Virus genome (UHGV): UHGV-0121437 | Source: a virus | DNA length: 13,778 nt | Direction: 5' to 3' (one strand) | Part shown: one piece after another, positions 1 through 13,778 of the stretch | Position numbering within the stretch: the stretch's first letter is position 1 | Layout of the letters: every line of letters begins with the position of its first letter | Made by a program: the position numbers and the translations under genes | The notes under the pieces: generated by a model | Told to the model about the DNA's origin: nothing | Seen by the model: only the letters and a program-made list of their open reading frames with translations | Databases searched by the model: none

Positions 1-112
1 TTAGTGATTGTCCAGTCCTGCTCGTCTATGACGCGCTTAAAACCTGACACTTTGACCGGCGTTTCCGTGTAAATATCTGCCCGGCCGGTAGCCAGGCTGA
101 TGGAGAACTCTG

Positions 113-541
113 CTAACCGGCACCCGGCAGGGACGCCCAGATATTGCGACAGCGTGAAATGGCGCGCTCAATGCGTCCCGCCCGGATGTCATCCAGTGCA
201 CCGCGTTCGCGGATCAACTGAATGGCGAGTCTGTCCTGCGACAACGGACTGAAATCCGGCAGGGCAAGCTGTTTGCGGTAGTGCGGCCAGAACAGGTAAA
301 GCTGCTGATAGCGACCGGAGGCCGTGGATTTTTCACCGCGACGGTTAAACACCTTCGCCGGTCGGCCATGTGCGAACGGGTGGTCACTGTAGTCGGTGAA
401 GATTTCCGGCTTCCCGTCCAGTCCGGTGACTATCACGTCATAGCCCCGGTTTTTCGTCAGCGGGTGATTCGCCGTCCCTTCGGACACGGCCAGCATGTCG
501 AGAAAGGCAGCGATATTCTGATGCGTGTTAATTACCGGCAT
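113..541 (-). CDS. K: Endolysin (P2 gpK-type lysozyme)
   Basis: 142-aa ORF beginning MPVINTHQNIAAFLDMLAVSEGTANHPL, recognisable as P2 K. Its ATG shares one nucleotide with the Y stop (TAATG on the minus strand at 539-543). Confidence 0.85.
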   Translation of the reverse strand: MPVINTHQNIAAFLDMLAVSEGTANHPLTKNRGYDVIVTGLDGKPEIFTDYSDHPFAHGRPAKVFNRRGEKSTASGRYQQLYLFWPHYRKQLALPDFSPLSQDRLAIQLIRERGALDDIRAGRIERAISRCRNIWASLPGAG

Positions 542-822
542 TACGGTTTCCCCCTGCCCTTAAAACGGCGCTGAATGGCAATCTCAATCACCTGATAACC
601 GGCGATACCCAGCATGGAGCCGATGCCGCACACCGCAGGCAGTGACAGGTCAGGAAACTGCACCAGAACAACACCGGCAACCATCGAGACAAAACCACCG
701 AGCAACATGCGCCCGATAAACAGACGCGGGGTGATGGGTTCACCACCGGCAAGCACCTTGCCGACAACAATCAGCACCCCAATCATGAAAAGCGACAGGA
801 CGCTTTTTTCTTCTGCTGTCAT
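541..822 (-). CDS. Y: Holin (P2 gpY-type)
   Basis: 93-aa ORF, MTAEEKSVLSLFMIGVLIVVGKVLAGG..., hydrophobic membrane segments; lies between X and K as in P2. Confidence 0.85.
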   Translation of the reverse strand: MTAEEKSVLSLFMIGVLIVVGKVLAGGEPITPRLFIGRMLLGGFVSMVAGVVLVQFPDLSLPAVCGIGSMLGIAGYQVIEIAIQRRFKGRGKP

Positions 823-825
823 GCG

Positions 826-1029
826 TTACTCCCACAGATTGACAGTTTCAGCCACGGGTGCGGTCTGAACGTCGGGCAGTTCGACGGCGGTGCCGTGCGG
901 CAACACCGCACCCAGTTCAGCCAGTCCCGGATTTGCGGCGAGCACGGCCTCGACCACGCCCTCAGTGCGCCCGTAATACCGGACACAAATGGCGTCGAGC
1001 GTGTCGCCCTGTAGCGCAAAGGTCTTCAT
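826..1029 (-). CDS. X: Tail protein gpX (small LysM-like protein)
   Basis: The 67-aa product starts MKTFALQGDTLDAICVRYYGRTEGVV and ends TVNLWE. The start ATG (1027-1029) shares a nucleotide with the L stop (TGATG). The longer ORF-track version (826..1098) is an in-frame upstream extension running into L. Confidence 0.8.
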   Translation of the reverse strand: MKTFALQGDTLDAICVRYYGRTEGVVEAVLAANPGLAELGAVLPHGTAVELPDVQTAPVAETVNLWE

Positions 1030-1538
1030 CAGATTTGACTCACGATGCAGCGCGGCTTGTCCTGGATACGCGCCCCCGCCCAGCGCATATCCCGCCACAG
1101 TTCATCAATGGTGCTGTCAATGCTGTCAGCCTTCTTGTCGCCTTTCGCACTGGCATCCACGCCGCGATAACGCTCATAAAGCGACGCGGTCGCCATCGCA
1201 CACACGGCGCGCTCGTAGTAAAAAACTTTGATGCTTTCACCGTCGATATCGTCCGCCGGGACGTCCGCCAGACGCGTAAAACCGGCAGCAATTTTCTGTT
1301 CGCGGTACTCGTACAGCTCCGCATTCGTCTCCGCCATGCCTGACTTGATGGCCTCACGCAGACGGGCGGGGGCGACGGTCTGCTCAAGGCGCATACGTTC
1401 CCGGACGCGCTTCGGGTCGATATTGGGAAAAAAGAACGTGTTTTTAATCACCGGCTCGTCGCCTGCCGGTTGCGGGATGACCACCGTACCCTCACCGGAC
1501 ACGGGAGCCTCCTTTCGCGGAATAATCAGCGTCATCAT
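1029..1538 (-). CDS. L: Head completion/stabilisation protein gpL
   Basis: 169-aa product starting MMTLIIPRKEAPVSGEGTVVIPQPAGDEP. The ATG at 1536-1538 is preceded by GAGG (plus-strand cctc at 1544-1547). The ORF-track start at 1598 is an upstream extension without a ribosome-binding site. Confidence 0.85.
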   Translation of the reverse strand: MMTLIIPRKEAPVSGEGTVVIPQPAGDEPVIKNTFFFPNIDPKRVRERMRLEQTVAPARLREAIKSGMAETNAELYEYREQKIAAGFTRLADVPADDIDGESIKVFYYERAVCAMATASLYERYRGVDASAKGDKKADSIDSTIDELWRDMRWAGARIQDKPRCIVSQI

Positions 1539-1637
1539 GACTACCTCAGAAAAGTCGGGCGGTGGACGCCGGTGCAGTGTCAGGTGATTCACCCTCACTG
1601 ACCGGCGTGCCGCCCTGGCGCGGGGCGCATTCGGTTG

Positions 1638-2381
1638 TTAACTGGCTTTCTTTTTCGGGCGTCCACGTTTTGCCGGTGTCACGCTCCGGGTCTTACGCGG
1701 GGCGCGGGGGGACGCTTTGGGCTGCGGCTCCGGCTTCGGTTTCAGCTCCCGCTCCAGTCGTTCAATCTCTTTTTTGACGCCTGCCTGACAGTCGAGCTGT
1801 GTCGCACGTTGCAGGTGAGCCAGCGCACCGGCGGCATCACCAGCGTCACGCAGAAACAGACCGGTGATTTTGTGCAGCTTTGCGCGCACTTCATCAGGCA
1901 TGTCAGCCGTGGCGGTCAGTTCAAGGGTCTCCGTCAGCAGGCGGGTATCCACAGACTCACCGGCAGCGTGAGCGCGCATGGCCGCAAGCGCTACCTCCTC
2001 GGTGAACATGTACGGCGGGGTACGGCGGTGTTTACCCGGCATGGTCAGACCGTACTTCAGGACATAACGGGCAATCTCCAGCGCACCGGCAATATCGCCG
2101 GTATCCAGACGCCACAGCATGACCGTCATCAGAATGTCATCCTGTGCACCTTTGCCCTGCTCCAGCACGCCGTTCACCCACGGCAACCAGAACGGCAGCA
2201 GTTCGCGTTTTTTCGCGGCCTTCAGCTCTTTTGAATAAATCGCTTTCAGTGTGCGCTGGTCTGCGGCGAGCTTAACCAGCATCTGCTCATAGACAGTTGC
2301 ATGTCGCAGCGGGGCGGCTTCCCGCTGCGCGGTCATCGCTGCCGAGACCCGCATCATGTGGCGCTGTGCGGGACTCGTCAT
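1638..2381 (-). CDS. M: Terminase endonuclease/small subunit gpM
   Basis: 247-aa ORF, MTSPAQRHMMRVSAAMTAQREAAPLRHATVYEQ..., with a basic C-terminal tail (RGRPKKKAS), matching P2 M. GGGAG ribosome-binding site upstream of the ATG. Confidence 0.9.
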   Translation of the reverse strand: MTSPAQRHMMRVSAAMTAQREAAPLRHATVYEQMLVKLAADQRTLKAIYSKELKAAKKRELLPFWLPWVNGVLEQGKGAQDDILMTVMLWRLDTGDIAGALEIARYVLKYGLTMPGKHRRTPPYMFTEEVALAAMRAHAAGESVDTRLLTETLELTATADMPDEVRAKLHKITGLFLRDAGDAAGALAHLQRATQLDCQAGVKKEIERLERELKPKPEPQPKASPRAPRKTRSVTPAKRGRPKKKAS

Positions 2382-2384
2382 CGG

Positions 2385-3458
2385 TTACGCTCCCGGCTCT
2401 GCGGTCGCTTTATCCGGTGTGGAGAAATCACCGACCTTAATTTTTTCCACCAGACAACCGGCGGCGTAGTCCTCCACCACGTAATCAATGTTCATTGACT
2501 CGTAGTTCTCCACGCGGTCGAGTTTCGGGTTTTCCACAATCACGCGGCGATGGCTGTCATCCATGTAGTAGATGGACAGGTTTTCCAGCTTTGTGATGAG
2601 CATCGCATCCGCCGGGAAGTACGGGACGCGTACCGCCGGCAGGTTACCGATGCGTTTCTGGCTGATGATGACGTCAGCGGCCAGCATCTCGCTGTTGTCC
2701 TGCTCTTTGTTAACGATGGGGAAATACTTGTCCGCCAGTAGCTGACGCCCCACAATCACCACAAGGTCAGGGTCTTCCTGATACCACGGCTCAATCAGGT
2801 TGTTGGTCGCATCCATCACCAGTGCATCGAGGCTGGCATAATCACCGCCCTTACCCACGCGGATGACCTCAGAGGTGGTGTGCCCTTCCTCGTCCGTAAC
2901 CTTGCTCATCACGCGCGCCGGGGCTTCATTGCGGTATTTCTGCAGCCAGCCGACCGCCACATCCTGCAGCATCGGATTACTGCTGCGGTCAGAGGTTTCG
3001 GCACGCTTCACGCCGTTAAAACCGGCCATGATGAAATCAAGGGACTGGCGTTTGATAATGGCGTTACGGATACGGAGCTGGAAATCCTGATAACGCGCCC
3101 ACAGGTCCAGCGTTTTGTAGCGGATATAAAAATCGAAGTTAATCTGGTCGCATTCGTACTTGTTTGACGCCAGCTTCGAGAAGTCCTTCGGCTGACGCTC
3201 GGTGCCACCGGCGGTGTCGGTGGTGCTGGCGATGGAGCCGGTGACACCAATACCAATTTTTTCCCCTTTCATTTCGCTGACCGGCACAATGTTGATGCGG
3301 GTCAGAAAGTCAGAGGACTCCTGCATGGTGTTCATCAGGGTCTGGGTGACCGACGGTTCAACGGTGAATTTTTTCGACACATCACCGGCGTCGATGCTGT
3401 TCAGTTCGGCAACACGGGACAGGTAGGCATTAAATTTAAAGCGGGTTTCCTGGCGCAT
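2385..3458 (-). CDS. N: Major capsid protein gpN
   Basis: 357-aa ORF, MRQETRFKFNAYLSRVAELNSIDAGDVSKKFTVEPSVTQ..., matching P2 N. AGGAAAAA ribosome-binding site upstream. Confidence 0.9.
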   Translation of the reverse strand: MRQETRFKFNAYLSRVAELNSIDAGDVSKKFTVEPSVTQTLMNTMQESSDFLTRINIVPVSEMKGEKIGIGVTGSIASTTDTAGGTERQPKDFSKLASNKYECDQINFDFYIRYKTLDLWARYQDFQLRIRNAIIKRQSLDFIMAGFNGVKRAETSDRSSNPMLQDVAVGWLQKYRNEAPARVMSKVTDEEGHTTSEVIRVGKGGDYASLDALVMDATNNLIEPWYQEDPDLVVIVGRQLLADKYFPIVNKEQDNSEMLAADVIISQKRIGNLPAVRVPYFPADAMLITKLENLSIYYMDDSHRRVIVENPKLDRVENYESMNIDYVVEDYAAGCLVEKIKVGDFSTPDKATAEPGA

Positions 3459-3516
3459 AGTTTTTCCTGAAATTAAGGGTTAATCGTGAAGGTTTTCCCG
3501 GACTGACTGACGCCGG

Positions 3517-4074
3517 TCAGCAGTTCGTCATCAGGGCGTCACCGCCACCGCCGGTGGCTTTGCTGCGGCGCTGCTGGGTCAGACTTTCGGTGTGGTCGAG
3601 ACTGTTTTTCAGGCGGGTGAATGCCTGACTGGTTTCATCCGCCCTGTCAGTTACATCCTGCTTAAGTGCCGAAAAGGCGGTTTCCATCTCAGCAAGGCGC
3701 TGCTCAGTGGCGCTCAGTTTTTCCTGCACATGCTCAGCGACAGCGGTCACCGCTTCATGCACGTCATTCAGACGGGCGTCATCGCTGGCCTGTTTGCGGC
3801 CAAAAATGGATTTCACCTTTTCGGTCAGGGCGGTGAACACGGTTTCAGGCAGGTCTTCAAATTCCAGCTCAACAGGCGTTGCCACTGAAATCAGGTTTTC
3901 AGGGCTTAATTTGAAGCGGTTCAGAGGGTTGTGTTTTGCCGTGCGGCAGAATTCCAGGTATTCCGTGCCGAGGCTTGCCGGGTCATCGGTGACGGCCAGA
4001 CCCACCAGATAACATTTGCCTGTATTGGCAAAGTTCGGCTGAATTTCCATTGAGGTACTCGACCGCCGTGACAT
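3517..4074 (-). pseudogene. O: Capsid scaffolding protein gpO, N-terminally truncated fragment (about 100 N-terminal residues missing)
   Basis: 185-aa ORF whose body ([28 protein letters not shown] ... [11 protein letters not shown]) matches the C-terminal two-thirds of P2 O (about 284 aa as I recall). The first codons (MSRRSSTS) are read from the antisense of Q-derived sequence, so the start is fortuitous. Confidence 0.7.
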
Positions 4075-4162
4075 TCTGGATTACGTCGAGTGCATCAGTA
4101 ACGGCAGATGGTATGAGCCACCGGTCAGCTTTACCGGTCTGGCAAAAAGCCTGCGTGCTGCC

Positions 4163-4990
4163 GTGCATCACAGCTCACCGATTTACGTCAAACGTAATAT
4201 TCTGGCCTCGACATTTATCCCGCATCCGTGGCTTTCCCAGCAGGATTTCAGCCGCTTTGTGCTGGATTTTCTGGTGTTCGGTAATGCGTTTCTGGAAAAG
4301 CGTTACAGCACCACCGGTAAGGTCATCAGACTGGAAACCTCACCGGCAAAATATACCCGCCGTGGCGTGGAGGAGGATGTTTACTGGTGGGTGCCGTCCT
4401 TCAACGAGCCGACAGCCTTCACGCCCGGCTCCGTGTTTCACCTGCTGGAGCCGGATATTAATCAGGAGCTGTACGGCCTGCCGGAATATCTCAGCGCCCT
4501 TAACTCTGCCTGGCTGAATGAGTCGGCCACGCTGTTCCGCCGCAAGTATTACGAAAATGGCGCTCATGCCGGATACATCATGTACGTTACCGATGCCGTG
4601 CAGGATCGCAACGATATCGAAATGCTTCGCGAAAACATGGTGAAGTCGAAAGGCCGCAACAACTTTAAAAACCTGTTTCTCTATGCCCCGCAGGGGAAAG
4701 CCGACGGCATTAAAATTATCCCGCTCAGTGAAGTGGCGACGAAGGACGATTTTTTTAATATCAAAAAAGCCAGCGCCGCTGACCTGCTGGACGCGCACCG
4801 CATCCCCTTTCAGTTGATGGGCGGTAAGCCGGAGAACGTCGGGTCGCTGGGTGATATTGAGAAAGTGGCAAAGGTCTTTGTCCGCAATGAGCTTATCCCG
4901 TTACAGGACAGGATTCGGGAAATAAACGGCTGGCTCGGTCAGGAGGTCATCCGCTTTAAAAACTACTCACTGGACACTGACAACAGCTGA
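4163..4990 (+). pseudogene. Q: Portal protein gpQ, 5'-truncated (first conventional start is GTG at 4163)
   Basis: 275-aa ORF, (V)HHSSPIYVKRNILASTFIPHPWLSQQDF ... YSLDTDNS, matching P2 Q (about 344 aa). The frame is open from 4043 and encodes Q-like [25 protein letters not shown] with no ATG/GTG/TTG before 4163; the authentic N-terminus is absent. Confidence 0.75.
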
Positions 4991-4995
4991 ACATC

Positions 4996-5017
4996 GCCGC
5001 CTGCGGGCGGCTTTTTT
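4996..5017 (+). terminator. Intrinsic terminator downstream of Q
   Basis: GCCGCC (4996-5001), loop TGCG, GGCGGC (5006-5011), then TTTTTT (5012-5017), 6 nt after the Q stop. Confidence 0.6.
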
Positions 5018-5158
5018 ACATCCCGTCATCACGCCCTCACACACTCACCACCGCACAAAACAGCCCGCAGGCAAACCAACGCCCAACGGACAGACTAAGC
5101 GCCGTCACGACGCGCTGAGACGCTGAAAAAATAAAATCAGCAACACCGCCAGCGCGCA

Positions 5159-5177
5159 GTGCTTTCCCCGCCTCGCC
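5159..5177. other. cos site (19-nt cohesive-end sequence of P2-type phages)
   Basis: gtgctttccccgcctcgcc is the reverse complement of GGCGAGGCGGGGAAAGCAC, which I recall as the P2 cohesive end. It lies just beyond Q, as expected. Confidence 0.7.
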
Positions 5178-5200
5178 CGCCCGCTTCGTGGGGCGGTTTT
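5177..5200 (+). terminator. Terminator-like hairpin abutting cos
   Basis: CCGCCC (5177-5182), 8-nt loop, GGGCGG (5191-5196), then TTTT (5197-5200). Confidence 0.4.
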
Positions 5201-5227
5201 AATGCAGATGCATGTGAACACTCGAGA

Positions 5228-5257
5228 TTGACTGGATAAGACCTAAGGTGCATTAAT
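5228..5257 (+). promoter_or_regulatory. Candidate sigma70 promoter for the AT-rich cassette
   Basis: TTGACT (5228-5233), 18-bp spacer, then TGcATTAAT (extended -10-like, hexamer 5252-5257), about 60 bp upstream of the first cassette ATG. Prediction by eye only. Confidence 0.35.
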
Positions 5258-5315
5258 TTTTTGTTTTTTTACATGCAGTTTGATGCAAGAACATGCCCTC
5301 TAAAGTCTTGGTTTA

Positions 5316-6365
5316 ATGTGCTACACTTTTATACAAACCTATGATAAAAGCGATAAAAAATCTTCCATTTTGGCGAACATTATGACGGATATTGAAACAG
5401 CTCGATGGAACACAGAAAGTGCCGCTTTGTTGGCACTATCAGAAATACATGGCGTTAGTTATTGGACTCTATATAAAGTTGCTCAAAAGGGAATCAGATT
5501 TAGAGACATTGTTACCAGCCAAACATTAGCCAACTTTGAGTATCTACTTGGAGTAAAACTTCATCGCCAACCTTATTATTTGAATGAAGGCAATTGGTCT
5601 GTTTTTCGGGATAGCATGATTTCTACGGCTAAAATATTACTCACACATTATCATAATAGTGGTTACAAAATCATCCACCATGGTTCTCCGAGCTATCCAG
5701 ACAAGTTGAATGACCTGTCTGAGCCGCCTTTCTGGTTGTTTGCTCAAGGCAATGTATCCTTGCTAGATAAAAAGTGTGTTGGAGTTGTCGGCACCAGAAA
5801 CCCAACCGCACTTGGAATTTATTTAACTCAAGCAGTAATCTCGCAATTTATAGATTCGGATTATTCAACTGTAAGCGGTTTAGCATATGGTATAGATCAA
5901 TCTGCACATGAAGCATCCCTGTTATTTAAAATACCGACAATTGCTGTGTTAGGTACTGGCGTAAACTCAAATTATCCCAAAAATAGTGGCGAGATGAGAG
6001 GCCATATTGTAAATAATGGCGGACTGATTCTTACTGAGTATTTACCAAACCAAAAACCATCACAGGAAAACTTTGTTCGTAGAAATAGAATTCAAGCAGC
6101 TTTAAGTGATGTATTGATCCCAGTTGAATGGGGCCTAAAAAGTGGGACATCTCATACTGTGAGATATGCTGCTCAATTAAAAAGAGCGATACTTTGTCCT
6201 TTACTTAGGGGAACTACACCTCAAGAAGAGATTAAACATGCCTTGTCAGAGTACTCAGCTACGATAATGAATATTCCACTATCCGATTTTAAAGACGTGC
6301 AAAGCTTAATTAAATCAGCATCCGGTGTAAAAACACAGCAACTTTCTCTTCTGGGAGATGAATAA
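5316..6365 (+). CDS. DprA/Smf-like protein (helix-hairpin-helix-like N-terminus plus Rossmann/SLOG-type DprA core)
   Basis: 349-aa ORF in AT-rich DNA. Core motifs resemble the DprA Rossmann domain: VGVVGTRNPTALG, VSGLAYGIDQSAHEASL, TIAVLGTGVNSNYPKNS, FVRRNRIQAALSDVLIPVEWGLKSGTSHTVRYA. The start may instead be the in-frame ATG at 5382; neither has a strong ribosome-binding site. Confidence 0.7.
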   Translation: MCYTFIQTYDKSDKKSSILANIMTDIETARWNTESAALLALSEIHGVSYWTLYKVAQKGIRFRDIVTSQTLANFEYLLGVKLHRQPYYLNEGNWSVFRDSMISTAKILLTHYHNSGYKIIHHGSPSYPDKLNDLSEPPFWLFAQGNVSLLDKKCVGVVGTRNPTALGIYLTQAVISQFIDSDYSTVSGLAYGIDQSAHEASLLFKIPTIAVLGTGVNSNYPKNSGEMRGHIVNNGGLILTEYLPNQKPSQENFVRRNRIQAALSDVLIPVEWGLKSGTSHTVRYAAQLKRAILCPLLRGTTPQEEIKHALSEYSATIMNIPLSDFKDVQSLIKSASGVKTQQLSLLGDE

Positions 6366-7641
6366 TATGTATTTAAAGGCAGTTATATTTTCAATCGCAG
6401 ATGTTGTATTACCATTAACATCTAACACTCAACCTCAGGAACTAAAATCTAGAATCGACTCTGAATTACGTAAGTTGTTTGCGTTTTTGTCATCAAAAGG
6501 GATTAAAGTTATCTTCTTGACAAATAAAAATAGAAACGTGAGAACACATGACGGGATCGTAACACTAGACGAATACCTAAAAAGGAAATTCCCAGAATCA
6601 ATTCACTTTTGCCGTGAACTCGACAACAACATACCAGCAAAACAAACAGGGAAGGCCATAGATTTCATCATGGCTGCGTTAGAATTAAAACGAAACGAAA
6701 TGATCTATGTAGGGCGTTCTCAGGAAGACTTACAAGCAGCTACCAACGGGAATACCCTATTTATTAATGCGACCTGGTATGAACCGGTTACTGAGTACGG
6801 TTTTCAATTTTCAGAACCCAAAGAAATCGCTAGATTTATTGATGTCTTTTGCTTAAGAGAGCAGTTGTGGGGATGGCAAGGGCATTTTAATGAAGATGTT
6901 CACTACTACGCCTTAGCACCATTTAGCACATATGTCCCTGAATTTACAATGTATTCAGCCAATGCAAGAGACCTCGCAAAGCTATCGGTTGGAAGCCCCG
7001 ATTTTTGGATAAGATATCTTGGTGCTAGCATTTATTTCTCTGGCTTAAGTGAAGGAGCAAGTTTTATAACCACCTACGTTGGACATAACGCTGAAGATCC
7101 TTATAAACTAGCAAACATTATGGAGCATGACCTAAAAGGTTTAGCAGTCTCATTCAAAGGAAAGTATCTAAAAGATCTATTCTTACGACATACAACAGCT
7201 ATTAAATCACAGCAAGCTCGGATAGCTAAGCAAGAAGTAAACATCACATCTCAAATAAACACCGTTAATTTAAATCCTGCCCCTATTAAAAACCTCATCA
7301 CCGGCGAAAGATATACCAACCCTCCTAAATTGAAAGGTAAGAAAATATTAGTTATTGATGATTTTTGCACTGAAGGAAATGCTCATGAAACAGCCAGAAT
7401 GTATCTAAAAGCTGCAGGCGCAAATGTAATAAATATATCGTGGTTAAAAACCATCAATCGTGACGTTTCTATCTGTGAACCAACTCGCAAGATACGGCCA
7501 TGGGAGGCCAATACACTTGATGTTGATGACATTAACTATGTCGGTACGATTGGTTATGCTGAAAATGTAACTCACGGTAGTGCACCTCAAGTGTTATCAG
7601 AAAAAATTCAACAATATGATAACTGGGACTGGCCACAATAA
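6358..7641 (+). CDS. Two-domain protein: N-terminal HAD-like fold with degenerate catalytic motifs, C-terminal type I phosphoribosyltransferase (PRTase) domain
   Basis: 427-aa ORF in AT-rich DNA. The C-terminal KKILVIDDFCTEGNAHETARMYLKAAGANVI fits the PRPP-binding loop of type I PRTases (four hydrophobic residues, DD, then T-x-G). The N-terminal KAVIFSIADVVLPL, KVIFLTNKN and MIYVGRSQEDLQAATNGNTLFINATW resemble HAD motifs I, II and IV, but the nucleophile position is not Asp. It overlaps the upstream gene by 8 bp; an alternative ATG at 6367 has GGGAG 9 nt upstream. Confidence 0.65.
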   Translation: MNNMYLKAVIFSIADVVLPLTSNTQPQELKSRIDSELRKLFAFLSSKGIKVIFLTNKNRNVRTHDGIVTLDEYLKRKFPESIHFCRELDNNIPAKQTGKAIDFIMAALELKRNEMIYVGRSQEDLQAATNGNTLFINATWYEPVTEYGFQFSEPKEIARFIDVFCLREQLWGWQGHFNEDVHYYALAPFSTYVPEFTMYSANARDLAKLSVGSPDFWIRYLGASIYFSGLSEGASFITTYVGHNAEDPYKLANIMEHDLKGLAVSFKGKYLKDLFLRHTTAIKSQQARIAKQEVNITSQINTVNLNPAPIKNLITGERYTNPPKLKGKKILVIDDFCTEGNAHETARMYLKAAGANVINISWLKTINRDVSICEPTRKIRPWEANTLDVDDINYVGTIGYAENVTHGSAPQVLSEKIQQYDNWDWPQ

Positions 7642-7654
7642 ATTAATCCCATAA

Positions 7655-7690
7655 TTTAAAGTGCCCCCTAATAATGGGAGGCACTTTAAA
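7655..7690. terminator. Strong hairpin, probable (possibly bidirectional) terminator between the cassette and A
   Basis: Perfect 11-bp stem: tttaaagtgcc (7655-7665) pairs with ggcactttaaa (7680-7690), 14-nt loop, A/T-rich flanks; 14 bp after the PRTase-gene stop. Confidence 0.5.
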
Positions 7691-7816
7691 TATTAAGAAG
7701 ATAATGTCATTAAGCGAAATTTAACTATAATTTAAAACATTACAATTATTATTTTTTAAACTTTACTATTACCCAATCCATCAATAAGACCTGTATTTAT
7801 TCGTAATTTAATAGCC

Positions 7817-10072
7817 TTACCACTCATCAATCACTGGATATTTGAATTTTTTATTATCATAAATCACCATCGCCCCACGCGCCAGCGCCTCAAGCTCCCA
7901 TCGCTGAGGCCTGATACCGTTCTGAGCAAGGTCAACGCGGATACGGGTAATTTGCAATCGTTCCGGCCGGGTCAGCCTGGCCGATGGTGCAATTTCATGT
8001 GGTTTTAACGGGCTTCCGTTTCTTTGCTGACGATTTGGTGTTCTCAGGCCGTGTTTTAATGCGCCCCTGAGCACCCTCACGACCTCCGGGTCATTCCATT
8101 CGATAACACCGTCATCAACCAGATTAAGCACTGCTGCGGCGTGTTCAGAAGGTGTGGGAGCCGGTAACGAAGTATCACCACCGGTGAGCTTTCCACAGTT
8201 ATTGACAGGACTCCGAGGCGCGGCGATGCCGCTTTTTAAAGTCAAAGGCTCAACGACCGGCACTTTCGGAACAATGCGCCAGTCCGTCGTTCTGGTGATA
8301 TGAATATGACGCGCGCCGAGATGCGGCGCGTAAATGCCGACCACTCTCCCGACTTCTTCCTCGTACTCGTTAACGTCATCCGACGGACTACGGGCAACCC
8401 TGACAGTCTGACAATCGCGCGGAACATTTGCCCCACCCTGCGCGCTGATATACAACGCAAAATCACCACTGTCTGCGGCAGCGCGTGCAGCCTCGACGCG
8501 TTCGTCAAACTCATCAGCAATGCTGACGCCGCGAGGCAATTTGCGTAGTTCACGGTAAGCCCCCATTGTCGGCAGGCCAACCGTTTTAAATTGCGGAATG
8601 CGCCACGTTGACGCCCATGCGGTAACAGCCGCGGCAGTGTCTTTCAGCGGCCTGCCGGTATCGTTATCGAGCTGACCATCCAGTGCATAGCCATCGATGT
8701 TTTTTGAGATGTATTTCGCGATATATCCCGCAGCACCGCCCCGGTTAAGGTGTTTTGCCTGAAAACGGTTTCGCGCGGCTCCTCTTTCGTCACCATCCTC
8801 TTTGAGCGCATAGCGACGCATGATTTCGATAATCTGGTTACGCTGGCGTGGATTACAAAAAAGCATCATATGCCAGTGCGGCGTTCCGTCGTGGTGTGGC
8901 TCGACGACTCGCAAACCGTAGACCTGTAAATCATTATCCTTGAATGCCGTGCGCATCAGGCTCCAGATGCGGCAGAGATAACGCTGCGCATCCTTTGGAT
9001 TAAATGCCTCATCATTCCAGCCGTGATTTAGCTGGACGGTTTTACTTTCGCCTTTTCCGACCTGACGTGTCGGGTGATACTTTGACGGCGCGGTCAGAGT
9101 GATAAACATCCCCACATCACCCTCTGCGGCGGCGTAACGCTCAATACCGGCGATGGTGTTCATCAGCTCCATCCGGCGAATTTCAGGATTAGAAATACTG
9201 CCCATCACCTTACTGATAAGGTCGATGCGCTCGCCGGTTTCCCTGTTTTCGAGGTCACACGATTTAAGAAATTCCAGATTTGCCTGGCGGCGTGCACGCA
9301 CATCACGAATGGCATGTTTACTGGCATAAGGAGAACGGTCTTTATTGACCTCCCCGACAGCAATCAGTAACGCCTCATGCCAGCGCATACGCTGGCCTTT
9401 AAGCTGATGAGTCCACCATTCATCGTTAAACAGACGGGCAATGGCAGAATATGCCTGCCTCGTGGTCATCTGTCCTTTACGGTATTTTTTCCAGTAGAGA
9501 GGGGAAATATTGAAAGCACGTGCAGCGCCAGCAACATGACCATACAGATGCGCCTGCGCCTCATCTGTAAACAGCGATTCTTTCTCGCCATGTGCATCAA
9601 CCCATGCATCGCAGAGTTCCTCATACATCATGAAAAGCTGCGATGAGATACGGGCGGCAAACTTTTTCAGCTCCTTGTCATTCATTCCAGGCAGGCGCGC
9701 ATAGTGGTCACGCTCTGCCAGAAACAGCAACGACGCGTCGGTGTTCATTTCATGGCGCTGATTCACGCGCTCAATACGCGGCCATAAACGGCGCTGAAAA
9801 GTGGATGTGAGGAAATAAAACCCGTGCACCGGGCTTTTATTGCGCCGGATGTAGTCATAGCGTGAAGTAAACAGCGAGCGCAAAAAGTAAGGCAGGCGAT
9901 TAATCGTGGATAAAACACCTTGCACCTGACGCATCTCGTCACGTGTAAGGGGTCTTTCGCGCCCGACGGCCTCGCGTGGCGCGTTCCATGCATAAGCACC
10001 GGTAAACGTCTCACCGGTGCCTGCGGCAAATGCTGACGGAGGGACAAAACGCCCGGAGGCTTTAACGGCCAT
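7817..10072 (-). CDS. A: Replication initiation protein gpA (rolling-circle nicking endonuclease)
   Basis: The long ORF matches P2 A from MAVKASGRFVPPSAFAAGTGETFTGAYAWNAPREAV. The start is placed at the ATG at 10070-10072; the ORF-track start at 10114 adds 14 codons with no ribosome-binding site. Confidence 0.9.
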   Translation of the reverse strand: MAVKASGRFVPPSAFAAGTGETFTGAYAWNAPREAVGRERPLTRDEMRQVQGVLSTINRLPYFLRSLFTSRYDYIRRNKSPVHGFYFLTSTFQRRLWPRIERVNQRHEMNTDASLLFLAERDHYARLPGMNDKELKKFAARISSQLFMMYEELCDAWVDAHGEKESLFTDEAQAHLYGHVAGAARAFNISPLYWKKYRKGQMTTRQAYSAIARLFNDEWWTHQLKGQRMRWHEALLIAVGEVNKDRSPYASKHAIRDVRARRQANLEFLKSCDLENRETGERIDLISKVMGSISNPEIRRMELMNTIAGIERYAAAEGDVGMFITLTAPSKYHPTRQVGKGESKTVQLNHGWNDEAFNPKDAQRYLCRIWSLMRTAFKDNDLQVYGLRVVEPHHDGTPHWHMMLFCNPRQRNQIIEIMRRYALKEDGDERGAARNRFQAKHLNRGGAAGYIAKYISKNIDGYALDGQLDNDTGRPLKDTAAAVTAWASTWRIPQFKTVGLPTMGAYRELRKLPRGVSIADEFDERVEAARAAADSGDFALYISAQGGANVPRDCQTVRVARSPSDDVNEYEEEVGRVVGIYAPHLGARHIHITRTTDWRIVPKVPVVEPLTLKSGIAAPRSPVNNCGKLTGGDTSLPAPTPSEHAAAVLNLVDDGVIEWNDPEVVRVLRGALKHGLRTPNRQQRNGSPLKPHEIAPSARLTRPERLQITRIRVDLAQNGIRPQRWELEALARGAMVIYDNKKFKYPVIDEW

Positions 10073-10337
10073 ATGAGCCAAAAGCCTCTGAACAACGCTT
10101 GCTGAGTTGCTCAACCTGCGCGTTTAAATCAGCAAAAGACTTTGCGCTTCCGGTCAGAATATCGTGATGCATCAGGCCGGAAACGAGCTGGCTTAATTTC
10201 GGGTAATAACCAGCCACCGCCAGCCATTCCTGACCGGCGTTTTTACCGCTTTCCGCTCTCTTTTTCTCGTGGAGAATAAACTGAAAGCTGTCACTGGTAA
10301 CGACATAACGTTCGCCAATTTCAATACGAATACTCAT
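10062..10337 (-). CDS. Small early-operon protein immediately upstream of A (P2 orf83 position)
   Basis: 91-aa ORF MSIRIEIGERYVVTSDSFQFILHEKKR...; its start overlaps the preceding stop (ATGA) and its end overlaps the A start. Confidence 0.6.
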   Translation of the reverse strand: MSIRIEIGERYVVTSDSFQFILHEKKRAESGKNAGQEWLAVAGYYPKLSQLVSGLMHHDILTGSAKSFADLNAQVEQLSKRCSEAFGSYGR

Positions 10338-10558
10338 GACGTTCTCCGGTAATGTTTGTTTTTTGCTTCAAAGACTGACTGGCAGGAAACACAACGCGTG
10401 GCTGACGGATAAGCCGCACGACGGGCAGCAGGTATTGGCGCGTCACACTCTTCGCAAACCAGCGCAGAAACACCGCAATGCTTTACCCTTGCCGCGTTAA
10501 TCTGGCGCTCCAGTAATTCAGCCTGTTGTTCCTGAATAAAATCTACGTTGTCCGGCAT
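10334..10558 (-). CDS. TraR/DksA-family C4 zinc-finger protein (P2 orf82 position)
   Basis: 74-aa ORF with four Cys arranged C-x(6)-C-x2-C ... C-x2-C (HCGVSALVCEEC ... RCVSCQ), typical of TraR/DksA-like zinc fingers. Confidence 0.65.
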   Translation of the reverse strand: MPDNVDFIQEQQAELLERQINAARVKHCGVSALVCEECDAPIPAARRAAYPSATRCVSCQSVFEAKNKHYRRTS

Positions 10559-10863
10559 TACCAGCTCCTTTTGTCGTTAAGTTTTTTAAATTCATCAGCG
10601 CAATAGCTGGCAATTTCTGTCGTTAATTTCGTCAGTTCATCCACGGAGGAGATTTGCTTGTGAAATACAGCGCGTTTAACAAGTAAATTGACCACATCAG
10701 ACAGGAGATTTAATTCGTTCTGATAAATCGCGATAACAGACTCAGTTATTTCGCGTTTTTCTTTATCAAGACCAAGTTGAATAAGAGATAAATCGCCATT
10801 TTTCATAACGGCGATTTTTAAGGCGTTATTCAGTAATACAACTGAACGAGAACAGGACATCAA
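10558..10863 (-). CDS. Early-operon hypothetical protein (P2 orf81 position)
   Basis: 101-aa [34 protein letters not shown]...; overlapping stop/start with both neighbours; visibly more AT-rich than neighbouring genes. Confidence 0.55.
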
Positions 10864-11084
10864 AGCACCTCCCCGCGAGACAATCCGATATTGTGAAATT
10901 TTTCCGACTCCTGACTGAGCAGCTCGACTATCTCCACGCGGGATAACTCCGCCTTTGTGATGTGGCGAATCATGGCGTCAAGATGAGAAGAAAAGCGCGT
11001 CGCTGCGTCGGCCTGTGCTTCGGTTCTGGCCTGTTGCAGCAGTAATGCGTATTTACCGCACTGATTTTCAGAAACTGTATGCAT
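10860..11084 (-). CDS. Early-operon hypothetical protein (P2 orf80 position)
   Basis: Product starts [24 protein letters not shown]; the ATG at 11082-11084 is preceded by GGAGAAAG. The ORF-track start at 11117 is an extension. Confidence 0.6.
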
Positions 11085-11147
11085 GACTTTCTCCAGGCAA
11101 AAAGAAGCCCCGCACAATTAAGTGCGTTAAAAACTCTGGTTAATTAC

Positions 11148-11648
11148 TTAATGCAGATATTGCTCTGGTTTTACCGACGTCAGAATTGTCGGTGCATACT
11201 CAAACAGGCTGAATAATTCACGTAATGCACGGAATAAAGCATCACGCCAGTAACATGATTCTTCATTAATTCGCCAGTATGGCTGGTTGAATTCTTTTTC
11301 AGTCAATCCGGCATGCATAAATAAAGTACGACGCTGACTGACTGTTAAAAAACTAATATATGCATACTCACTTGCGCCAACCTGACGGCGTTTTGAGAAT
11401 GCCCCACGCAATTCATCAATTGCACATACCAGTCGTTCACGTTCGACATCATTCATTTCTTCAAAACGCATCGTTGCGTGACGCTGTTTTAACTGCGCAT
11501 GGAAGCAAACCGTTAGCCGTTCGCGTTCCATCATCTGATTATAATAATCGCATGTCTCCTGCCAGCGAGGGACGGCAAGATGCTTACCAATTATCCGGCG
11601 CATAGCTGCTGGCTGTTTTTCAACGAGATTAAGCGTCATCACTGTCAT
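11148..11648 (-). CDS. B: Replication protein gpB
   Basis: 166-aa ORF MTVMTLNLVEKQPAAMRRIIGKHLAVPRWQETCDYYNQ..., matching P2 B in length and sequence as recalled. Confidence 0.85.
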   Translation of the reverse strand: MTVMTLNLVEKQPAAMRRIIGKHLAVPRWQETCDYYNQMMERERLTVCFHAQLKQRHATMRFEEMNDVERERLVCAIDELRGAFSKRRQVGASEYAYISFLTVSQRRTLFMHAGLTEKEFNQPYWRINEESCYWRDALFRALRELFSLFEYAPTILTSVKPEQYLH

Positions 11649-11815
11649 TTCCAGACCCTCCGGCTTTTCAGAAAGGTCAGAGCCTTTTTTAACGGACTCT
11701 GTTTTTTGGTGCGGATAATGATTCCCTTACGCCCCTTACCGTGGGTGATGGTGAAGTCAATCGCCCTAGGGCTTTCGTTACGCAGTAACTGAGCAATACA
11801 ACGAGGCTCATTCAT
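11645..11815 (-). CDS. Small basic protein (P2 orf78 position)
   Basis: 56-aa product MNEPRCIAQLLRNESPRAIDFTITHGKGRKGIIIRTKK... with AAGGAG immediately upstream of the ATG at 11813-11815. The ORF-track start at 11839 would overlap cox. Confidence 0.6.
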   Translation of the reverse strand: MNEPRCIAQLLRNESPRAIDFTITHGKGRKGIIIRTKKQSPLKKALTFLKSRRVWK

Positions 11816-11825
11816 ACGGTTCTCC

Positions 11826-12101
11826 TTAACGTGGTTCACCGAGACCTAACCACATCAACCAGCCGTCACGAATCTCTTTAGGGCGGCTTTCATAAGCCAG
11901 TTTTAGTCCGTTATTCCATGCCGGAAGGTATACCCAATATTCACCTGCACGACCTGAAGCTGATTGTGGATCGGTCATATCAATTACAGGCAGCTTTCCT
12001 TTATCAATCATCCGACGAACCGCTCCTGTCGATTTTCCTATTAGTTTTGCGAACTCCTGATAAGGAATCGCATCAGTCATGAGTGTTACTTGCTTGCTCA
12101 T
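11826..12101 (-). CDS. cox: Cox (excisionase and lytic-switch regulator)
   Basis: 91-aa ORF MSKQVTLMTDAIPYQEFAKLIGKSTGAVRRMIDKGKLPV..., matching P2 Cox; divergent from C. Confidence 0.9.
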   Translation of the reverse strand: MSKQVTLMTDAIPYQEFAKLIGKSTGAVRRMIDKGKLPVIDMTDPQSASGRAGEYWVYLPAWNNGLKLAYESRPKEIRDGWLMWLGLGEPR

Positions 12102-12138
12102 GTCGTCCTCTAGCCCTCATGAATTGCGTTTAATGTCT

Positions 12139-12212
12139 TATAATGCCTTTTAGTGCCCACATCCAAGCACTAAACAATCTACATCTAAACTAAATACTAT
12201 TGAGATCTAAAC
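12139..12212. promoter_or_regulatory. Immunity switch region: Pc-like -10 and candidate C-repressor operator repeats over the lytic promoter
   Basis: Perfect TATAAT at 12139-12144 on the plus strand, oriented toward C. Two identical 8-bp direct repeats atctaaac at 12183-12190 and 12205-12212 (22 bp centre to centre). An 8-bp inverted repeat tttagtgc/gcactaaa at 12149-12156 and 12167-12174. P2 C is known to bind two direct repeats flanking the Pe -10. Confidence 0.5.
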
Positions 12213-12215
12213 ACC

Positions 12216-12515
12216 ATGTCAAACACGATAAGCGAGAAGATAGTCTTAATGCGAAAATCAGAGTATTTGAGCAGACAACAACTTGCTGATTTAACAGGGG
12301 TTCCGTATGGCACGCTGAGTTACTATGAAAGTGGTCGTTCAACACCTCCAACAGATGTCATGATGAACATCCTGCAGACCCCACAATTCACCAAATACAC
12401 TTTATGGTTCATGACCAATCAGATCGCTCCTGAGTCCGGGCAAATTGCGCCCGCTCTCGCACACTTTGGGCAAAACGAAACAACGTCGCCCCACTCCGGT
12501 CAAAAGACTGGTTAA
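12216..12515 (+). CDS. C: Immunity repressor C
   Basis: 99-aa ORF MSNTISEKIVLMRKSEYLSRQQLADLTGVPYGTLSYYESGRSTPP... with a helix-turn-helix region, matching P2 C. Confidence 0.9.
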   Translation: MSNTISEKIVLMRKSEYLSRQQLADLTGVPYGTLSYYESGRSTPPTDVMMNILQTPQFTKYTLWFMTNQIAPESGQIAPALAHFGQNETTSPHSGQKTG

Positions 12516-12630
12516 CAATTCATCGTGAATATATTCATCACAAGTGCCTACTATTGGTGGCTAAATTTCAGCCACCACGAAAAAAGCGATTAGTAGTCAC
12601 AAAAAAACACACCACTCGGAGGGTTTTCTG

Positions 12631-13644
12631 ATGGCAATCAAAAAACTCGATGATGGTCGATATGAAGTGGACATCCGCCCTACTGGACGTAATGGAAAAC
12701 GCATCCGTAGGAAGTTTGATAAGAAAAGCGAAGCTGTCGCTTTCGAGAAATACACGTTGTACAACCACCACAATAAAGAATGGCTATCAAAACCAACAGA
12801 CAAGCGACGTCTGTCGGAGCTGACACAGATCTGGTGGGATTTAAAGGGTAAACACGAAGAGCATGGGAAATCTAATCTTGGAAAAATTGAAATCTTCACA
12901 AAAATAACGAATGACCCATGCGCATTTCAAATTACGAAATCGCTTATCAGCCAGTACTGCGCCACCCGAAGAAGTCAGGGTATTAAACCTTCGAGTATCA
13001 ATCGTGATTTAACATGTATTAGCGGCATGTTTACAGCCCTGATTGAAGCGGAGTTATTCTTTGGTGAGCACCCTATCAGAGGGACAAAAAGGCTTAAGGA
13101 GGAAAAACCAGACACAGGCTATCTCACGCAGGAAGAAATTGCCTTACTGCTTGCAGCACTTGACGGCGACAACAAAAAGATTGCGATTCTTTGCCTGAGT
13201 ACAGGAGCACGTTGGGGAGAAGCAGCTCGTTTGAAAGCAGAAAATATCATCCATAACCGCGTCACGTTTGTTAAAACGAAAACAAACAAACCACGCACCG
13301 TCCCGATCTCAGAGGCTGTTGCCAAAATGATCGCGGATAACAAACGAGGTTTTTTATTCCCTGATGCTGATTACCCTCGCTTCAGACGAACAATGAAAGC
13401 AATAAAACCGGATTTGCCAATGGGGCAAGCCACACATGCACTAAGGCACAGCTTTGCCACTCATTTCATGATTAATGGAGGAAGTATTATCACGCTACAA
13501 CGGATACTAGGTCACACGCGGATTGAGCAAACTATGGTTTACGCTCATTTTGCGCCAGAGTACCTTCAGGACGCCATTTCTCTTAATCCGCTAAGAGGTG
13601 GTACTGAGGCCGAGAGTGTCCACATAGTGTCCACAGTAGAGTAA
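12631..13644 (+). CDS. int: Tyrosine integrase
   Basis: 337-aa ORF MAIKKLDDGRYEVDIRPTGRNGKRIRRKFDKKSEAVAFEKY... with the C-terminal tyrosine-recombinase region (HALRHSFATHFMINGGSIITLQRILGHTRIEQTMVYAHF); GGAGGG ribosome-binding site upstream. Confidence 0.9.
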   Translation: MAIKKLDDGRYEVDIRPTGRNGKRIRRKFDKKSEAVAFEKYTLYNHHNKEWLSKPTDKRRLSELTQIWWDLKGKHEEHGKSNLGKIEIFTKITNDPCAFQITKSLISQYCATRRSQGIKPSSINRDLTCISGMFTALIEAELFFGEHPIRGTKRLKEEKPDTGYLTQEEIALLLAALDGDNKKIAILCLSTGARWGEAARLKAENIIHNRVTFVKTKTNKPRTVPISEAVAKMIADNKRGFLFPDADYPRFRRTMKAIKPDLPMGQATHALRHSFATHFMINGGSIITLQRILGHTRIEQTMVYAHFAPEYLQDAISLNPLRGGTEAESVHIVSTVE

Positions 13645-13723
13645 CGTTTAAGGGCTTTCAGTGGTAATTTATGCCGCTCAAACCCGCATTGTACCGTTGA
13701 AAGCCCCTACTGGTGACACCCTA

Positions 13724-13750
13724 AATCTCCCTTACACGGGCTTATTTTTT
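13724..13750. other. 27-bp att core (P2 attP/attL-type)
   Basis: aatctcccttacacgggcttatttttt is the reverse complement of AAAAAATAAGCCCGTGTAAGGGAGATT, the P2 att core as I recall it; 80 bp beyond the int stop. Confidence 0.7.
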
Positions 13751-13778
13751 TATGCATAAGCCCTATCTCTGGTAACCG

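Follow-up and report, generated by a model that had tools for sequence, protein, structure and literature searches.

The AT-rich stretch beside cos in a defective P2-like prophage carries the ShosTA anti-phage system in a known cargo hotspot

In P2, a defence hotspot has been published for the interval from gpQ/cos to gpA (Rousset et al. 2022, PMC9122126; de Sousa et al. 2026, PMC13586616). Cargo is swapped rapidly at this site, by a mechanism described in the latest survey as “still to be elucidated” (PMC13586616). A DprA-plus-PRTase gene pair cloned from the P2 hotspot protected against T7 and lambda, and PsyrTA and RqlHI have been cited as relatives (PMC9122126). ShosTA of Escherichia coli APEC O1 is an experimentally validated abortive-infection type IV toxin-antitoxin system (PMC11961720, PMC12961424), for which structures are available under PDB 8ZVA-8ZVD, 9VZO, and 9W2P/9W2Q (Pu et al. 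2025, PMC11961720; Yang et al. 2026, PMC12961424). The experiments concern proteins identical to those described below. ShosT is toxic: it binds PRPP, interferes with purine metabolism, and impairs DNA replication. ShosA, a DprA-like dimer that binds single-stranded DNA (ssDNA) and acts with RecA, neutralizes ShosT without binding it (PMC11961720, PMC12961424; for the binding of ssDNA and RecA, PMC12961424). Phage infection releases ShosT, which aborts the infection, and T7 plating falls by about six orders of magnitude (PMC11961720, PMC12961424; for T7 plating, PMC11961720). Proposed triggers are the T7 Gp0.7 host shut-off combined with ShosA instability and/or the accumulation of phage ssDNA; both the trigger and the physiological substrate of ShosT are debated in the two mechanistic papers (PMC11961720, PMC12961424).

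We analyzed a stretch of 13,778 nucleotides from virus genome UHGV-0121437 (the window), in which an earlier note had described, by eye, a sharp AT-rich island running from cos to the stop codon of gene A. The backbone is P2-like, with Pfam matches to Phage_GPA, P2 capsid, small terminase, and portal. The island lies between Q/cos (cos at 5159-5177) and A, in the slot occupied by tin/old in P2 itself. Its conserved left flank is a 5'-truncated portal gene Q (4163-4990, + strand; Phage_portal, 1.5e-14), which is 96-97% identical to the Q of P2-like phages from position 4054 onward. The conserved right flank is the replication initiator gene A (7817-10114, - strand; Phage_GPA, 3e-124), whose start as annotated in relatives corresponds to position 10072 and whose sequence from 7867 onward is 96.6-97.2% identical to the A of P2-like phages. 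For 186-related prophages, the tin/old (‘TO’) region is reportedly treated in work by Dodd & Egan from 1996.

Comparison with other P2-like prophages, which the earlier note had proposed as a check, revealed alternative cargos in the cos-to-A interval and allowed the breakpoints to be mapped. Seven P2-like phages whose flanks are 95-98% identical carry mutually unrelated cargos here: orf91/tin/old, vbhT, cdtABC, paraMORC3 with dcm, retron reverse transcriptases, DUF4238, and shosTA. The homology breakpoints are sharp, at 5206-5216 on the left and at 7820, 7856, or 7939 on the right, and the six phages other than the ShosTA carrier have unrelated cargo between identical breakpoints. Across 60 viral contigs, P2-like ones being separated from other cos-bearing contigs by Q and Psu searches, the cargo measures 928-5,709 nt. 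We have very little doubt that the island represents the variable cargo module which this P2-like prophage has in the known cos-A hotspot, here carrying ShosTA.

The compositional contrast seen by eye is real. GC content is 0.371 in 5200-7816, compared with 0.569 in 1-5199 (0.527 in the Q fragment) and 0.531 in gene A, a material difference from the flanking phage genes. A 300-nt profile falls from 0.56 to 0.35 over 5100-5400 and climbs from 0.35 to 0.50 over 7650-8100, and a two-change-point maximum-likelihood fit, which gains 100 nats over a single composition, places the edges at 5197 and 7864. The left edge thus falls where it had been drawn, directly after the GC-rich hairpin adjoining cos (5177-5196). 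The right edge had been assigned to the A stop; this holds for homology, which in most P2-like phages resumes at 7820, adjoining the stop, but the composition shifts about 48 nt inside A. Likewise, the island is not the only AT-rich DNA in the window, as the wording “far more AT-rich than everything else” implied, since the early-gene region contains short patches with a GC content of 0.39-0.42 (10500-10950, 11100-11550, and 12000-12300); it is, however, the longest and lowest such stretch.

Codon usage also differs strongly between the island and the phage genes (chi2 426, df 60, p 1e-56). GC at third codon positions is 0.29 and 0.32 for the two open reading frames (ORFs) of the island, whereas phage genes have 0.54-0.71. 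Per 1000 codons, the island has 35.8 TTA (5.5 in phage genes), 23.9 ATA (0.6), 35.8 AAT (17.6), and 5.3 CTG (46.8), and AGA accounts for 53% of its arginine codons compared with 5%. Four codons had been singled out as characteristic of the island; AAT and TTA are clearly enriched, whereas AAA and ATT are only slightly so. Because every cargo seen at this slot is AT-rich (GC 0.32-0.42 in 60 of the 60 P2-like contigs, compared with ~0.54 in A), the composition marks mobile cargo DNA in general rather than ShosTA specifically. A sharp GC drop adjoining cos in a P2-like prophage is a reliable flag for a defence cassette. One may speculate that the AT-rich cassette locus is silenced by H-NS.

The cargo itself, which had been left unnamed when the island was first read as a cargo cassette, is the already characterized anti-phage toxin-antitoxin pair ShosTA. 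The two genes are adjacent and co-oriented, with the DprA-like antitoxin gene followed by the PRTase-domain toxin gene, and the PADLOC profiles of both are covered over their full length. shosA (5382-6365, + strand, 327 aa) matches the ShosA profile at 2.2e-231 (765 bits, profile positions 1-327 of 327) and Pfam DNA_processg_A at 1e-59. A longer ORF begins at 5316, but this is probably not the start that is used: the RefSeq start corresponds to 5382, and the PADLOC model begins at residue 23 of the long ORF. shosT (6358-7641, + strand, 427 aa; 424 aa if the alternative start, 6367, is used) has an 8-nt overlap with the shosA stop (ATGAATAA) and matches the ShosT profile at 4e-296 (positions 1-427 of 427), while its Pfam Pribosyltran and HAD matches are weak and below the gathering score. 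The domain architecture follows from 100% identity to the crystallized E. coli APEC O1 proteins, 8ZVB for ShosT over 427 aa and 9VZO for ShosA: ShosT combines an N-terminal pyrophosphatase/HAD-like fold with a noncanonical C-terminal PRTase, and ShosA is a DprA-like dimer. By analogy with these identical proteins, the module in the window would abort phage infection as described for them.

The native promoter presumably lies in the region upstream of shosA (5299-5381, + strand); in P2, transcription of old-tin begins ~169 nt from the cos end, which corresponds to ~5327 in the window. A consensus scan of 4950-7950 found no qualifying promoter upstream of shosA, with 6 promoter-like matches overall compared with 8.3 in shuffled sequences. 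Downstream of shosT, in an intergenic stretch with a GC content of 0.25 (7642-7816), an inverted repeat (I7) forms a hairpin at 7654-7691 with a 15-bp stem, 93% complementarity, an 8-nt loop, and folding energies of -21.8 kcal/mol on the + strand and -25.3 on the - strand. It probably acts as a bidirectional terminator where the shosAT and A transcripts converge; a terminator scan did not list it because it lacks a clean T-run. The remaining AT-rich cassette tail (7692-7816) is noncoding, having no ORF of at least 30 aa, and an Rfam scan of the whole window returned no family at the gathering score.

Two phages, P24C9 and 10W, have the same cassette, and among 5,426 complete E. coli genomes it occurs in 30; its cos-A position was checked directly in P24C9, Z217-2, and APEC O1. 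ShosTA also occupies this slot in a 74%-identical Enterobacter P2-like prophage. The prophage in the window is defective, as a 2,357-bp deletion removes terminase gene P, so the cassette cannot at present spread by packaging from this copy. The O/Q deletion junction of the window is absent from the 5,426 complete E. coli genomes.

Such decay raises the question of whether the cassette serves mainly as an addiction module, stabilizing a decaying prophage by postsegregational killing, with phage defence being secondary. ShosTA is a true toxin-antitoxin pair whose antitoxin is unstable (PMC11961720), and the prophages of the window, Z217-2, and APEC O1 have been degraded by different deletions while the cassette is intact in all three. 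Yet the drop of about six orders in T7 plating with identical proteins and the protection against T7 and lambda (PMC11961720, PMC9122126) speak for defence, the viable phages P24C9 and 10W carry the cassette too, and a chromosomal prophage is not lost by segregation as a plasmid is. Moreover, an IS5 inserted in the cassette region of the H41 genome indicates that disruption is tolerated at least sometimes. We therefore consider addiction an improbable main role.

How the cargo arrived had been attributed to swapping by recombination at a conserved hotspot rather than to gradual divergence, and four lines of evidence support this: the unrelated cargos with sharp breakpoints, a cassette more conserved than its backbone, a chimeric A tail, and the published hotspot. 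Copies of the cassette share 99.7-99.9% identity, while the backbones around them share 96.1-97.6% (2.4-3.9% difference), a disparity that, on sequence grounds, indicates recent swapping by recombination. At the right end, the A stop codon (7817-7819) sits on the cassette side of the common breakpoint, and the A tail (7817-7866, - strand) is an AT-enriched variant that is 74% identical to the consensus A tail, compared with ~97% from 7867 onward. This variant is identical in carriers L001, L009, and L014 and chimeric in L126. Judged from these alignments, the final 16 codons of A move together with the cassette, and the L126 chimera appears to record a crossover inside the flanking homology. 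The mosaic patterns suggest that homologous recombination between P2-like genomes introduced the module; one crossover would lie in the cos core (~5206-5216), and the second would fall within the 3' end of A (at ~7867 for the lineage of the window). Breakpoints resolved to the base, the A tail linked to the cassette, and the chimera would then be direct footprints of such exchange.

Insertion beside cos by the machinery of an independent mobile element (an insertion sequence, a transposon, or an integron-like cassette) is a far less probable route. A 20-nt imperfect direct repeat, D3 (15 of 20 positions), does lie inside each breakpoint, at 5219-5238 and 7821-7840, as a recombination footprint might. 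It is only marginally unusual, however, being matched in 1.7% of shuffles (p ~0.017), and it is missing with other cargos (mean 6.1/20, compared with 5.2 in controls), so it is probably due to chance. No ORF in the island encodes a transposase or integrase, terminal inverted repeats are absent, and almost no transposable elements are found in these hotspots (PMC13586616); we thus rejected a transposon- or IS-borne insertion. Least credible of all, to the point of being refuted, is an origin of the stretch in situ, through mutational drift or relaxed selection acting on the ancestral P2 genes (tin/old), or through chance fluctuation: P2's own slot genes are also AT-rich, but nothing further favors this view, and it conflicts with the 100-nat likelihood gain, the lack of detectable homology to P2 orf91/tin/old or any other cargo, the integrity of both ORFs and their identity to active proteins, and the conservation of the cassette beyond that of its flanks.

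Returning to exchange by homologous recombination, its left boundary deserves attention. The 19-nt cohesive-end sequence GTGCTTTCCCCGCCTCGCC (5159-5177) is the reverse complement of P2 cosL/cosR and matches the annotated cosR and cosL of NC_001895 exactly. It is followed by the hairpin at 5177-5196, a part of the conserved cos core with a 6-bp GC stem that is kept in P2-like and P4-like elements, and by the last conserved cos-core stretch, TTTTAATGCAGATGCATG (5197-5214), which contains two ATGCA boxes. Information content is high as far as offset ~53 from cos, and the left homology breakpoints fall at the end of this stretch. Beyond it lies a spacer (5215-5271) of near-constant length (~1 nt of offset variation) and free sequence (~0-0.5 bit), which covaries with cargo type, the same cargo having the same spacer. 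Phased ATGCA boxes then reappear at 5272-5298 (5273-5277, 5283-5287, and a degenerate third at ~5294). Among 76 distinct flanks, ATGCA occurs at offsets 115, 125, and ~135-138 in 46, 42, and ~51, respectively, compared with a background of 0.095 per offset, and P4 as well as P4-like satellites (Psu identities of 38-100%) have the boxes in the same register.

We infer that the 5272-5298 boxes form the right arm of the P2/P4 packaging signal. Since the phased boxes are conserved in both P2 and P4, the first ~130 nt of the apparent island are probably packaging signal and not cargo. That these ~130 nt constitute a previously underdescribed extension of the signal is a tentative suggestion. If it is true, the left crossover of cassette swapping falls inside the packaging site, and each cargo must supply the boxes itself; combined with the mosaic A tails, such an arrangement would provide a concrete homologous-recombination mechanism for hotspot turnover. 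According to the conserved boxes, usable insertion space begins ~130 nt from cos and not at the GC change point, an offset that matters for the automatic delimiting of cargo and for P2/P4 cosmid engineering.

Several described systems resemble parts of this locus. ShosA shares the DNA_processg_A Rossmann-like domain with canonical DprA/Smf, yet it scores below the NCBIfam equivalog cutoffs (171.2 bits for TIGR00732, with a cutoff of 191.15, and 128.6 for NF008007, with a cutoff of 495), carries an additional region at its N terminus, and functions as an antitoxin. We therefore rejected its assignment as a canonical DprA, and the RefSeq name “DNA-processing protein DprA” is an overannotation. 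PsyrTA/RqlHI likewise has a DprA-like (SLOG-type) antitoxin, and the PADLOC PsyrA model matches ShosA (3.8e-24), but far more weakly than the ShosA profile does (84 bits compared with 765); the PsyrT model has no match on ShosT. ShosTA of APEC O1, the strain used in the ShosTA experiments, is the closest system: its two proteins show 100% identity to those of the window, DNA identity is 99.7% across 2,617 nt, and the gene order and the cos-A position in a P2-like prophage are the same. The two loci differ by a few silent or noncoding substitutions and by their prophage deletions. Finally, the locus shares with the P2 tin/old hotspot the gpQ/cos-gpA interval, the conserved flanks, and AT-rich unrelated cargo, with no essential difference. 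Slot and cargo have thus both been published already, and the feature is an ordinary, explained one, useful as a worked example; the additions to the published hotspot are breakpoints at base-level resolution, the linkage of an A tail to the cassette, and conserved ATGCA boxes within what looks like the island.

The stretch between the cos hairpin and the stop codon of the replication initiator gene A (5200-7816) differs sharply in composition from the phage genes around it. Its GC content is 0.371, compared with 0.569 in 1-5199, 0.531 in A (7817-10114, minus strand), and 0.527 in the fragment of portal gene Q (4163-4990, plus strand), with steps at 5100-5400 and 7650-8100 in a 300-nt GC profile. 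A two-change-point likelihood fit placed the edges at 5197 and 7864 and gained 100 nats over a single composition. Third-position GC was 0.29 and 0.32 for the two island ORFs versus 0.54-0.71 for phage genes, and codon usage also differed strongly (chi2 = 426, df = 60, p = 1e-56). Sliding GC and codon usage therefore bear out the AT-rich island described in an earlier note. Of the codons listed there, AAT and TTA are enriched, but AAA and ATT only slightly; ATA and AGA are enriched as well, and CTG, CGC, and GCC are depleted. The note's contrast with everything else in the window goes slightly too far, since the early genes drop to GC 0.39-0.42 in short patches (10500-10950, 11100-11550, and 12000-12300). 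The first two patches sit in DNA 96.8% identical to P2 and are therefore core P2 sequence rather than further cargo islands. The left edge lies where the note had placed it: position 5197 is the first base past a GC-rich hairpin (5177-5196) that directly follows the 19-nt P2 cohesive-end sequence (5159-5177).

The window is the right-hand portion of a P2-like prophage. To the left, on the minus strand, are the genes for small terminase M (1638-2381) and major capsid N (2385-3458); beyond A come early genes and an integrase-sized ORF (12631-13644), matched to annotated genes of Escherichia coli Z217-2. Homology to P2 ends at 11606, whereas homology to Z217-2 runs on to the window end (11606-13778); thus, the cox/repressor/integrase module appears to differ from that of P2. 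This prophage is a defective one: set against every P2-like phage in the comparison, it lacks 2,357 bp between two GGTA tetranucleotides, with the junction at 4054-4057. Scaffold gene O has lost its 5' 314 nt and Q its first 98 nt to the deletion, which also removes the pO/pP promoter region and large-terminase gene P in full; the junction affects 3517-4074 and 4163-4990. None of the 5,426 complete E. coli genomes searched has this exact junction.

The island holds two overlapping plus-strand genes. The first ORF (5316-6365) has a DprA domain (Pfam PF02481, 1e-59) and matches PADLOC ShosA (2.2e-231) from its residue 23 onward; since RefSeq also starts identical genes at the ATG at window 5382, we take shosA, the DprA-like antitoxin gene, as 5382-6365 (327 aa). 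The second, shosT (6358-7641; 427 aa), matches PADLOC ShosT over its full length (4e-296) and has weak HAD and PRTase Pfam matches. The ATG of shosT and the stop of shosA overlap (ATGAATAA), an arrangement that suggests translational coupling. RefSeq labels the 5382-6365 product “DNA-processing protein DprA” and ShosT only “hypothetical protein.” The former name is misleading: the protein scores under both NCBIfam dprA equivalog cutoffs, and it is the ShosA antitoxin. ShosA and ShosT are 100% identical to PDB 9VZO and 8ZVB, respectively. These structures are of the E. coli APEC O1 system (PMC11961720); in that strain, the cassette occupies the same cos-A slot, with DNA 99.7% identical to the window. 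The intergenic tail (7642-7816) has a GC content of 0.25 and contains a hairpin with a 15-bp stem (7654-7691; folding at -21.8 kcal/mol on one strand and -25.3 kcal/mol on the other), by its position a putative terminator for shosAT and for A, which are transcribed toward each other. Neither an ORF nor an Rfam match was found in 7692-7816.

The mechanism of ShosTA is taken from papers on proteins identical to those encoded here. ShosT is toxic; it binds PRPP and disturbs purine metabolism, and it leads to duplication of DNA and to filamentation (Pu et al. 2025, PMC11961720). ShosA, a DNA-binding protein, counteracts ShosT with no binding between the two, so that the pair is a type IV toxin-antitoxin system (PMC11961720). 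T7 Gp0.7 triggers the system through protein-synthesis shutoff and ShosA instability, and native ShosTA lowers T7 plating by about 10^6 (Pu et al. 2025, PMC11961720). Neutralisation needs ShosA dimerisation, single-stranded DNA (ssDNA) binding, and direct contact of ShosA with RecA, an interaction for which phage ssDNA has been proposed as a competitor (Yang et al. 2026, PMC12961424). A DprA+PRTase pair taken from the P2 hotspot was shown to guard against T7 and lambda (Rousset et al. 2022, PMC9122126). A mainly addictive role would agree with three carriers in which the prophages are degraded in different ways and the cassettes are intact; yet, given the published phenotypes, defence is the better-supported function.

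The earlier note had also proposed that the island is cargo swapped in by recombination. The gpQ/cos-to-gpA region is a described hotspot, with 1,650 gene arrangements in 18,150 E. coli loci (Rousset et al. 2022, PMC9122126). We mapped breakpoints by pairwise BLAST against six P2-like phages of different cargo and P2 itself, and by multiple alignment. The left flank is 95-98% identical as far as 5206-5214 by BLAST, with divergence by about 5216 in the alignment; BLAST detected no homology to these phages across the island. The right flank aligns again from 7820 (P2, STYP1, P2-T22, and pro147), 7856 (PhiR44_1), or 7939 (pro483). Between these sharp breakpoints, the slot carries unrelated cargo: orf91/tin/old in P2, vbhT (Fic) in STYP1, cdtABC in P2-T22, paraMORC3 and dcm in PhiR44_1, retron reverse transcriptases in pro147, and DUF4238 in pro483. 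In pro147, a second insertion (4577-6891, equivalent to window 4914-5151) encodes the retron Ec48 reverse transcriptase and effector; it sits between the Q stop and cos, the side matching the P4 hotspot.

Cargo is AT-rich in all 60 loci compared, namely, the 59 with both cos and A among 120 viral contigs containing the cos 19-mer, plus one phage locus (GC 0.32-0.418, median 0.377; median for A, 0.542). Its length ranges from 928 to 5,709 nt (median 2,740). The window cargo (2,652 nt; GC 0.368) is near both medians, making the island typical of its slot. Among the 5,426 complete E. coli genomes, 2,153 have the Q-cos flank, at 3,087 places in all, and 30 have the ShosTA cassette, with one chromosomal copy each; therefore, ShosTA fills roughly 1% of slots. 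In one of these 30 carriers, E. coli strain 4114 (NZ_CP071328.1, 2257-5939), the cassette match is split in two and the annotation places an IS5-family transposase beneath it, indicating that the region is interrupted there.

Compared with the window, the cassette is 99.9% identical in phage P24C9 (2 mismatches in 2,602 nt; A, 97.6%; Q-cos sequence is nearly absent from the record) and in Z217-2 (2 mismatches; Q-cos, 96.3%; A, 97.6%), 99.7% in viral contig L014 (8 mismatches; Q-cos, 96.1%; A, 96.8%), and 86% in an Enterobacter prophage (Q-cos, 73%; A, 74%). Cassettes more alike than their backbones are the signature of recent lateral exchange and, with the unrelated cargos between shared breakpoints, support the swapped-cassette proposal. 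In five other genome records (four alphaproteobacterial going by title), distant ShosTA homologs of 35-40% identity have GC contents of 0.47-0.60, near those of their own flanks; thus, AT-richness is not intrinsic to these proteins as a family. Homologs of 63-81% identity in four further loci (Dryocola, Brenneria, and a record titled Martelella alba) lie in cassettes of GC 0.37-0.38. Neither gpA nor gpQ was detected in their fetched flanks (3-6 kb each side), so the cassette is also present outside intact P2-like contexts; in one of them (L133), a 19-mer resembling cos, with 3 mismatches to it, lies about 200 nt upstream of shosA.

That the island is a self-mobile element is not supported: it has neither a transposase ORF nor terminal inverted repeats. 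An imperfect 20-nt direct repeat (15/20) does lie just inside each breakpoint (5219-5238 and 7821-7840), but it is specific to ShosTA cassettes, only marginally unusual (1.7% of shuffles reach 15/20), and probably due to chance. In-place drift or a chance fluctuation is excluded by the 100-nat gain, the lack of homology across the island, and a cassette more conserved than its backbone.

Both edges of the island can be placed more finely. On the right, a consensus A tail shared by most cargos defines the common junction at 7820, with the A stop codon (7817-7819) just on its cassette side. This agrees with the boundary proposed in the note, but the GC change point lies inside A, at 7864. This offset arises because the last 16 A codons (7820-7866) are a cassette-linked, AT-enriched variant in the window, P24C9, Z217-2, and L014, 100% conserved among them and 74% identical to the consensus, with five amino acid changes counted from the sequences. 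In other phages, A extends 24-45 nt more, into their own cargo. A second ShosTA cassette lineage, 95.6% identical, in a contig of the IMGVR_UViG_2778261348 series (L126), has a chimeric tail over the equivalent of 7820-7866, cassette-type for the first half (~25 nt) and consensus thereafter, indicating a crossover within the A 3' end. The cassette would thus have moved by homologous recombination, with one crossover in the cos core and the other in the 3' end of A.

On the left, ATGCA...ATGCA stays in register at 5273-5287 across aligned phages of different cargo, past the end of homology at ~5216. Three ATGCA boxes, phased by ~10 bp, span 5272-5298, about 115-138 nt from the cos start. Among 76 distinct cargo-side flanks from P2-like and P4-like elements (including loci L010-L129 and P4), ATGCA starts at offset 115 from the first cos base in 46, 125 in 42, and ~135-138 in ~51, against a background of 0.095 per offset; allowing ±2 nt, the first box is found in 62 and the second in 58. 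P4 and P4-like satellites have the same layout on the psu side, even where Psu is only 38-62% identical. These satellites share packaging by the P2 terminase with P2 (PMC9122126), and from a layout common to elements packaged by this terminase we infer that the boxes probably belong to the packaging signal or terminase recognition site. They fall outside the published cos core, 55 bp as cited in PMC5694545, and the ~58-nt spacer in between is free, unconserved sequence that covaries with cargo. True cargo probably begins at about 5300.

Overall, the compositional island is confirmed and its interpretation as swapped cargo is supported. Both parts are already known, as the P2 cos-gpA hotspot and as ShosTA, with solved structures of identical proteins; possibly new are only two details, the phased ATGCA boxes lying within what looks like the island and the mosaic A tails, in which the mechanism of exchange has left its footprints.
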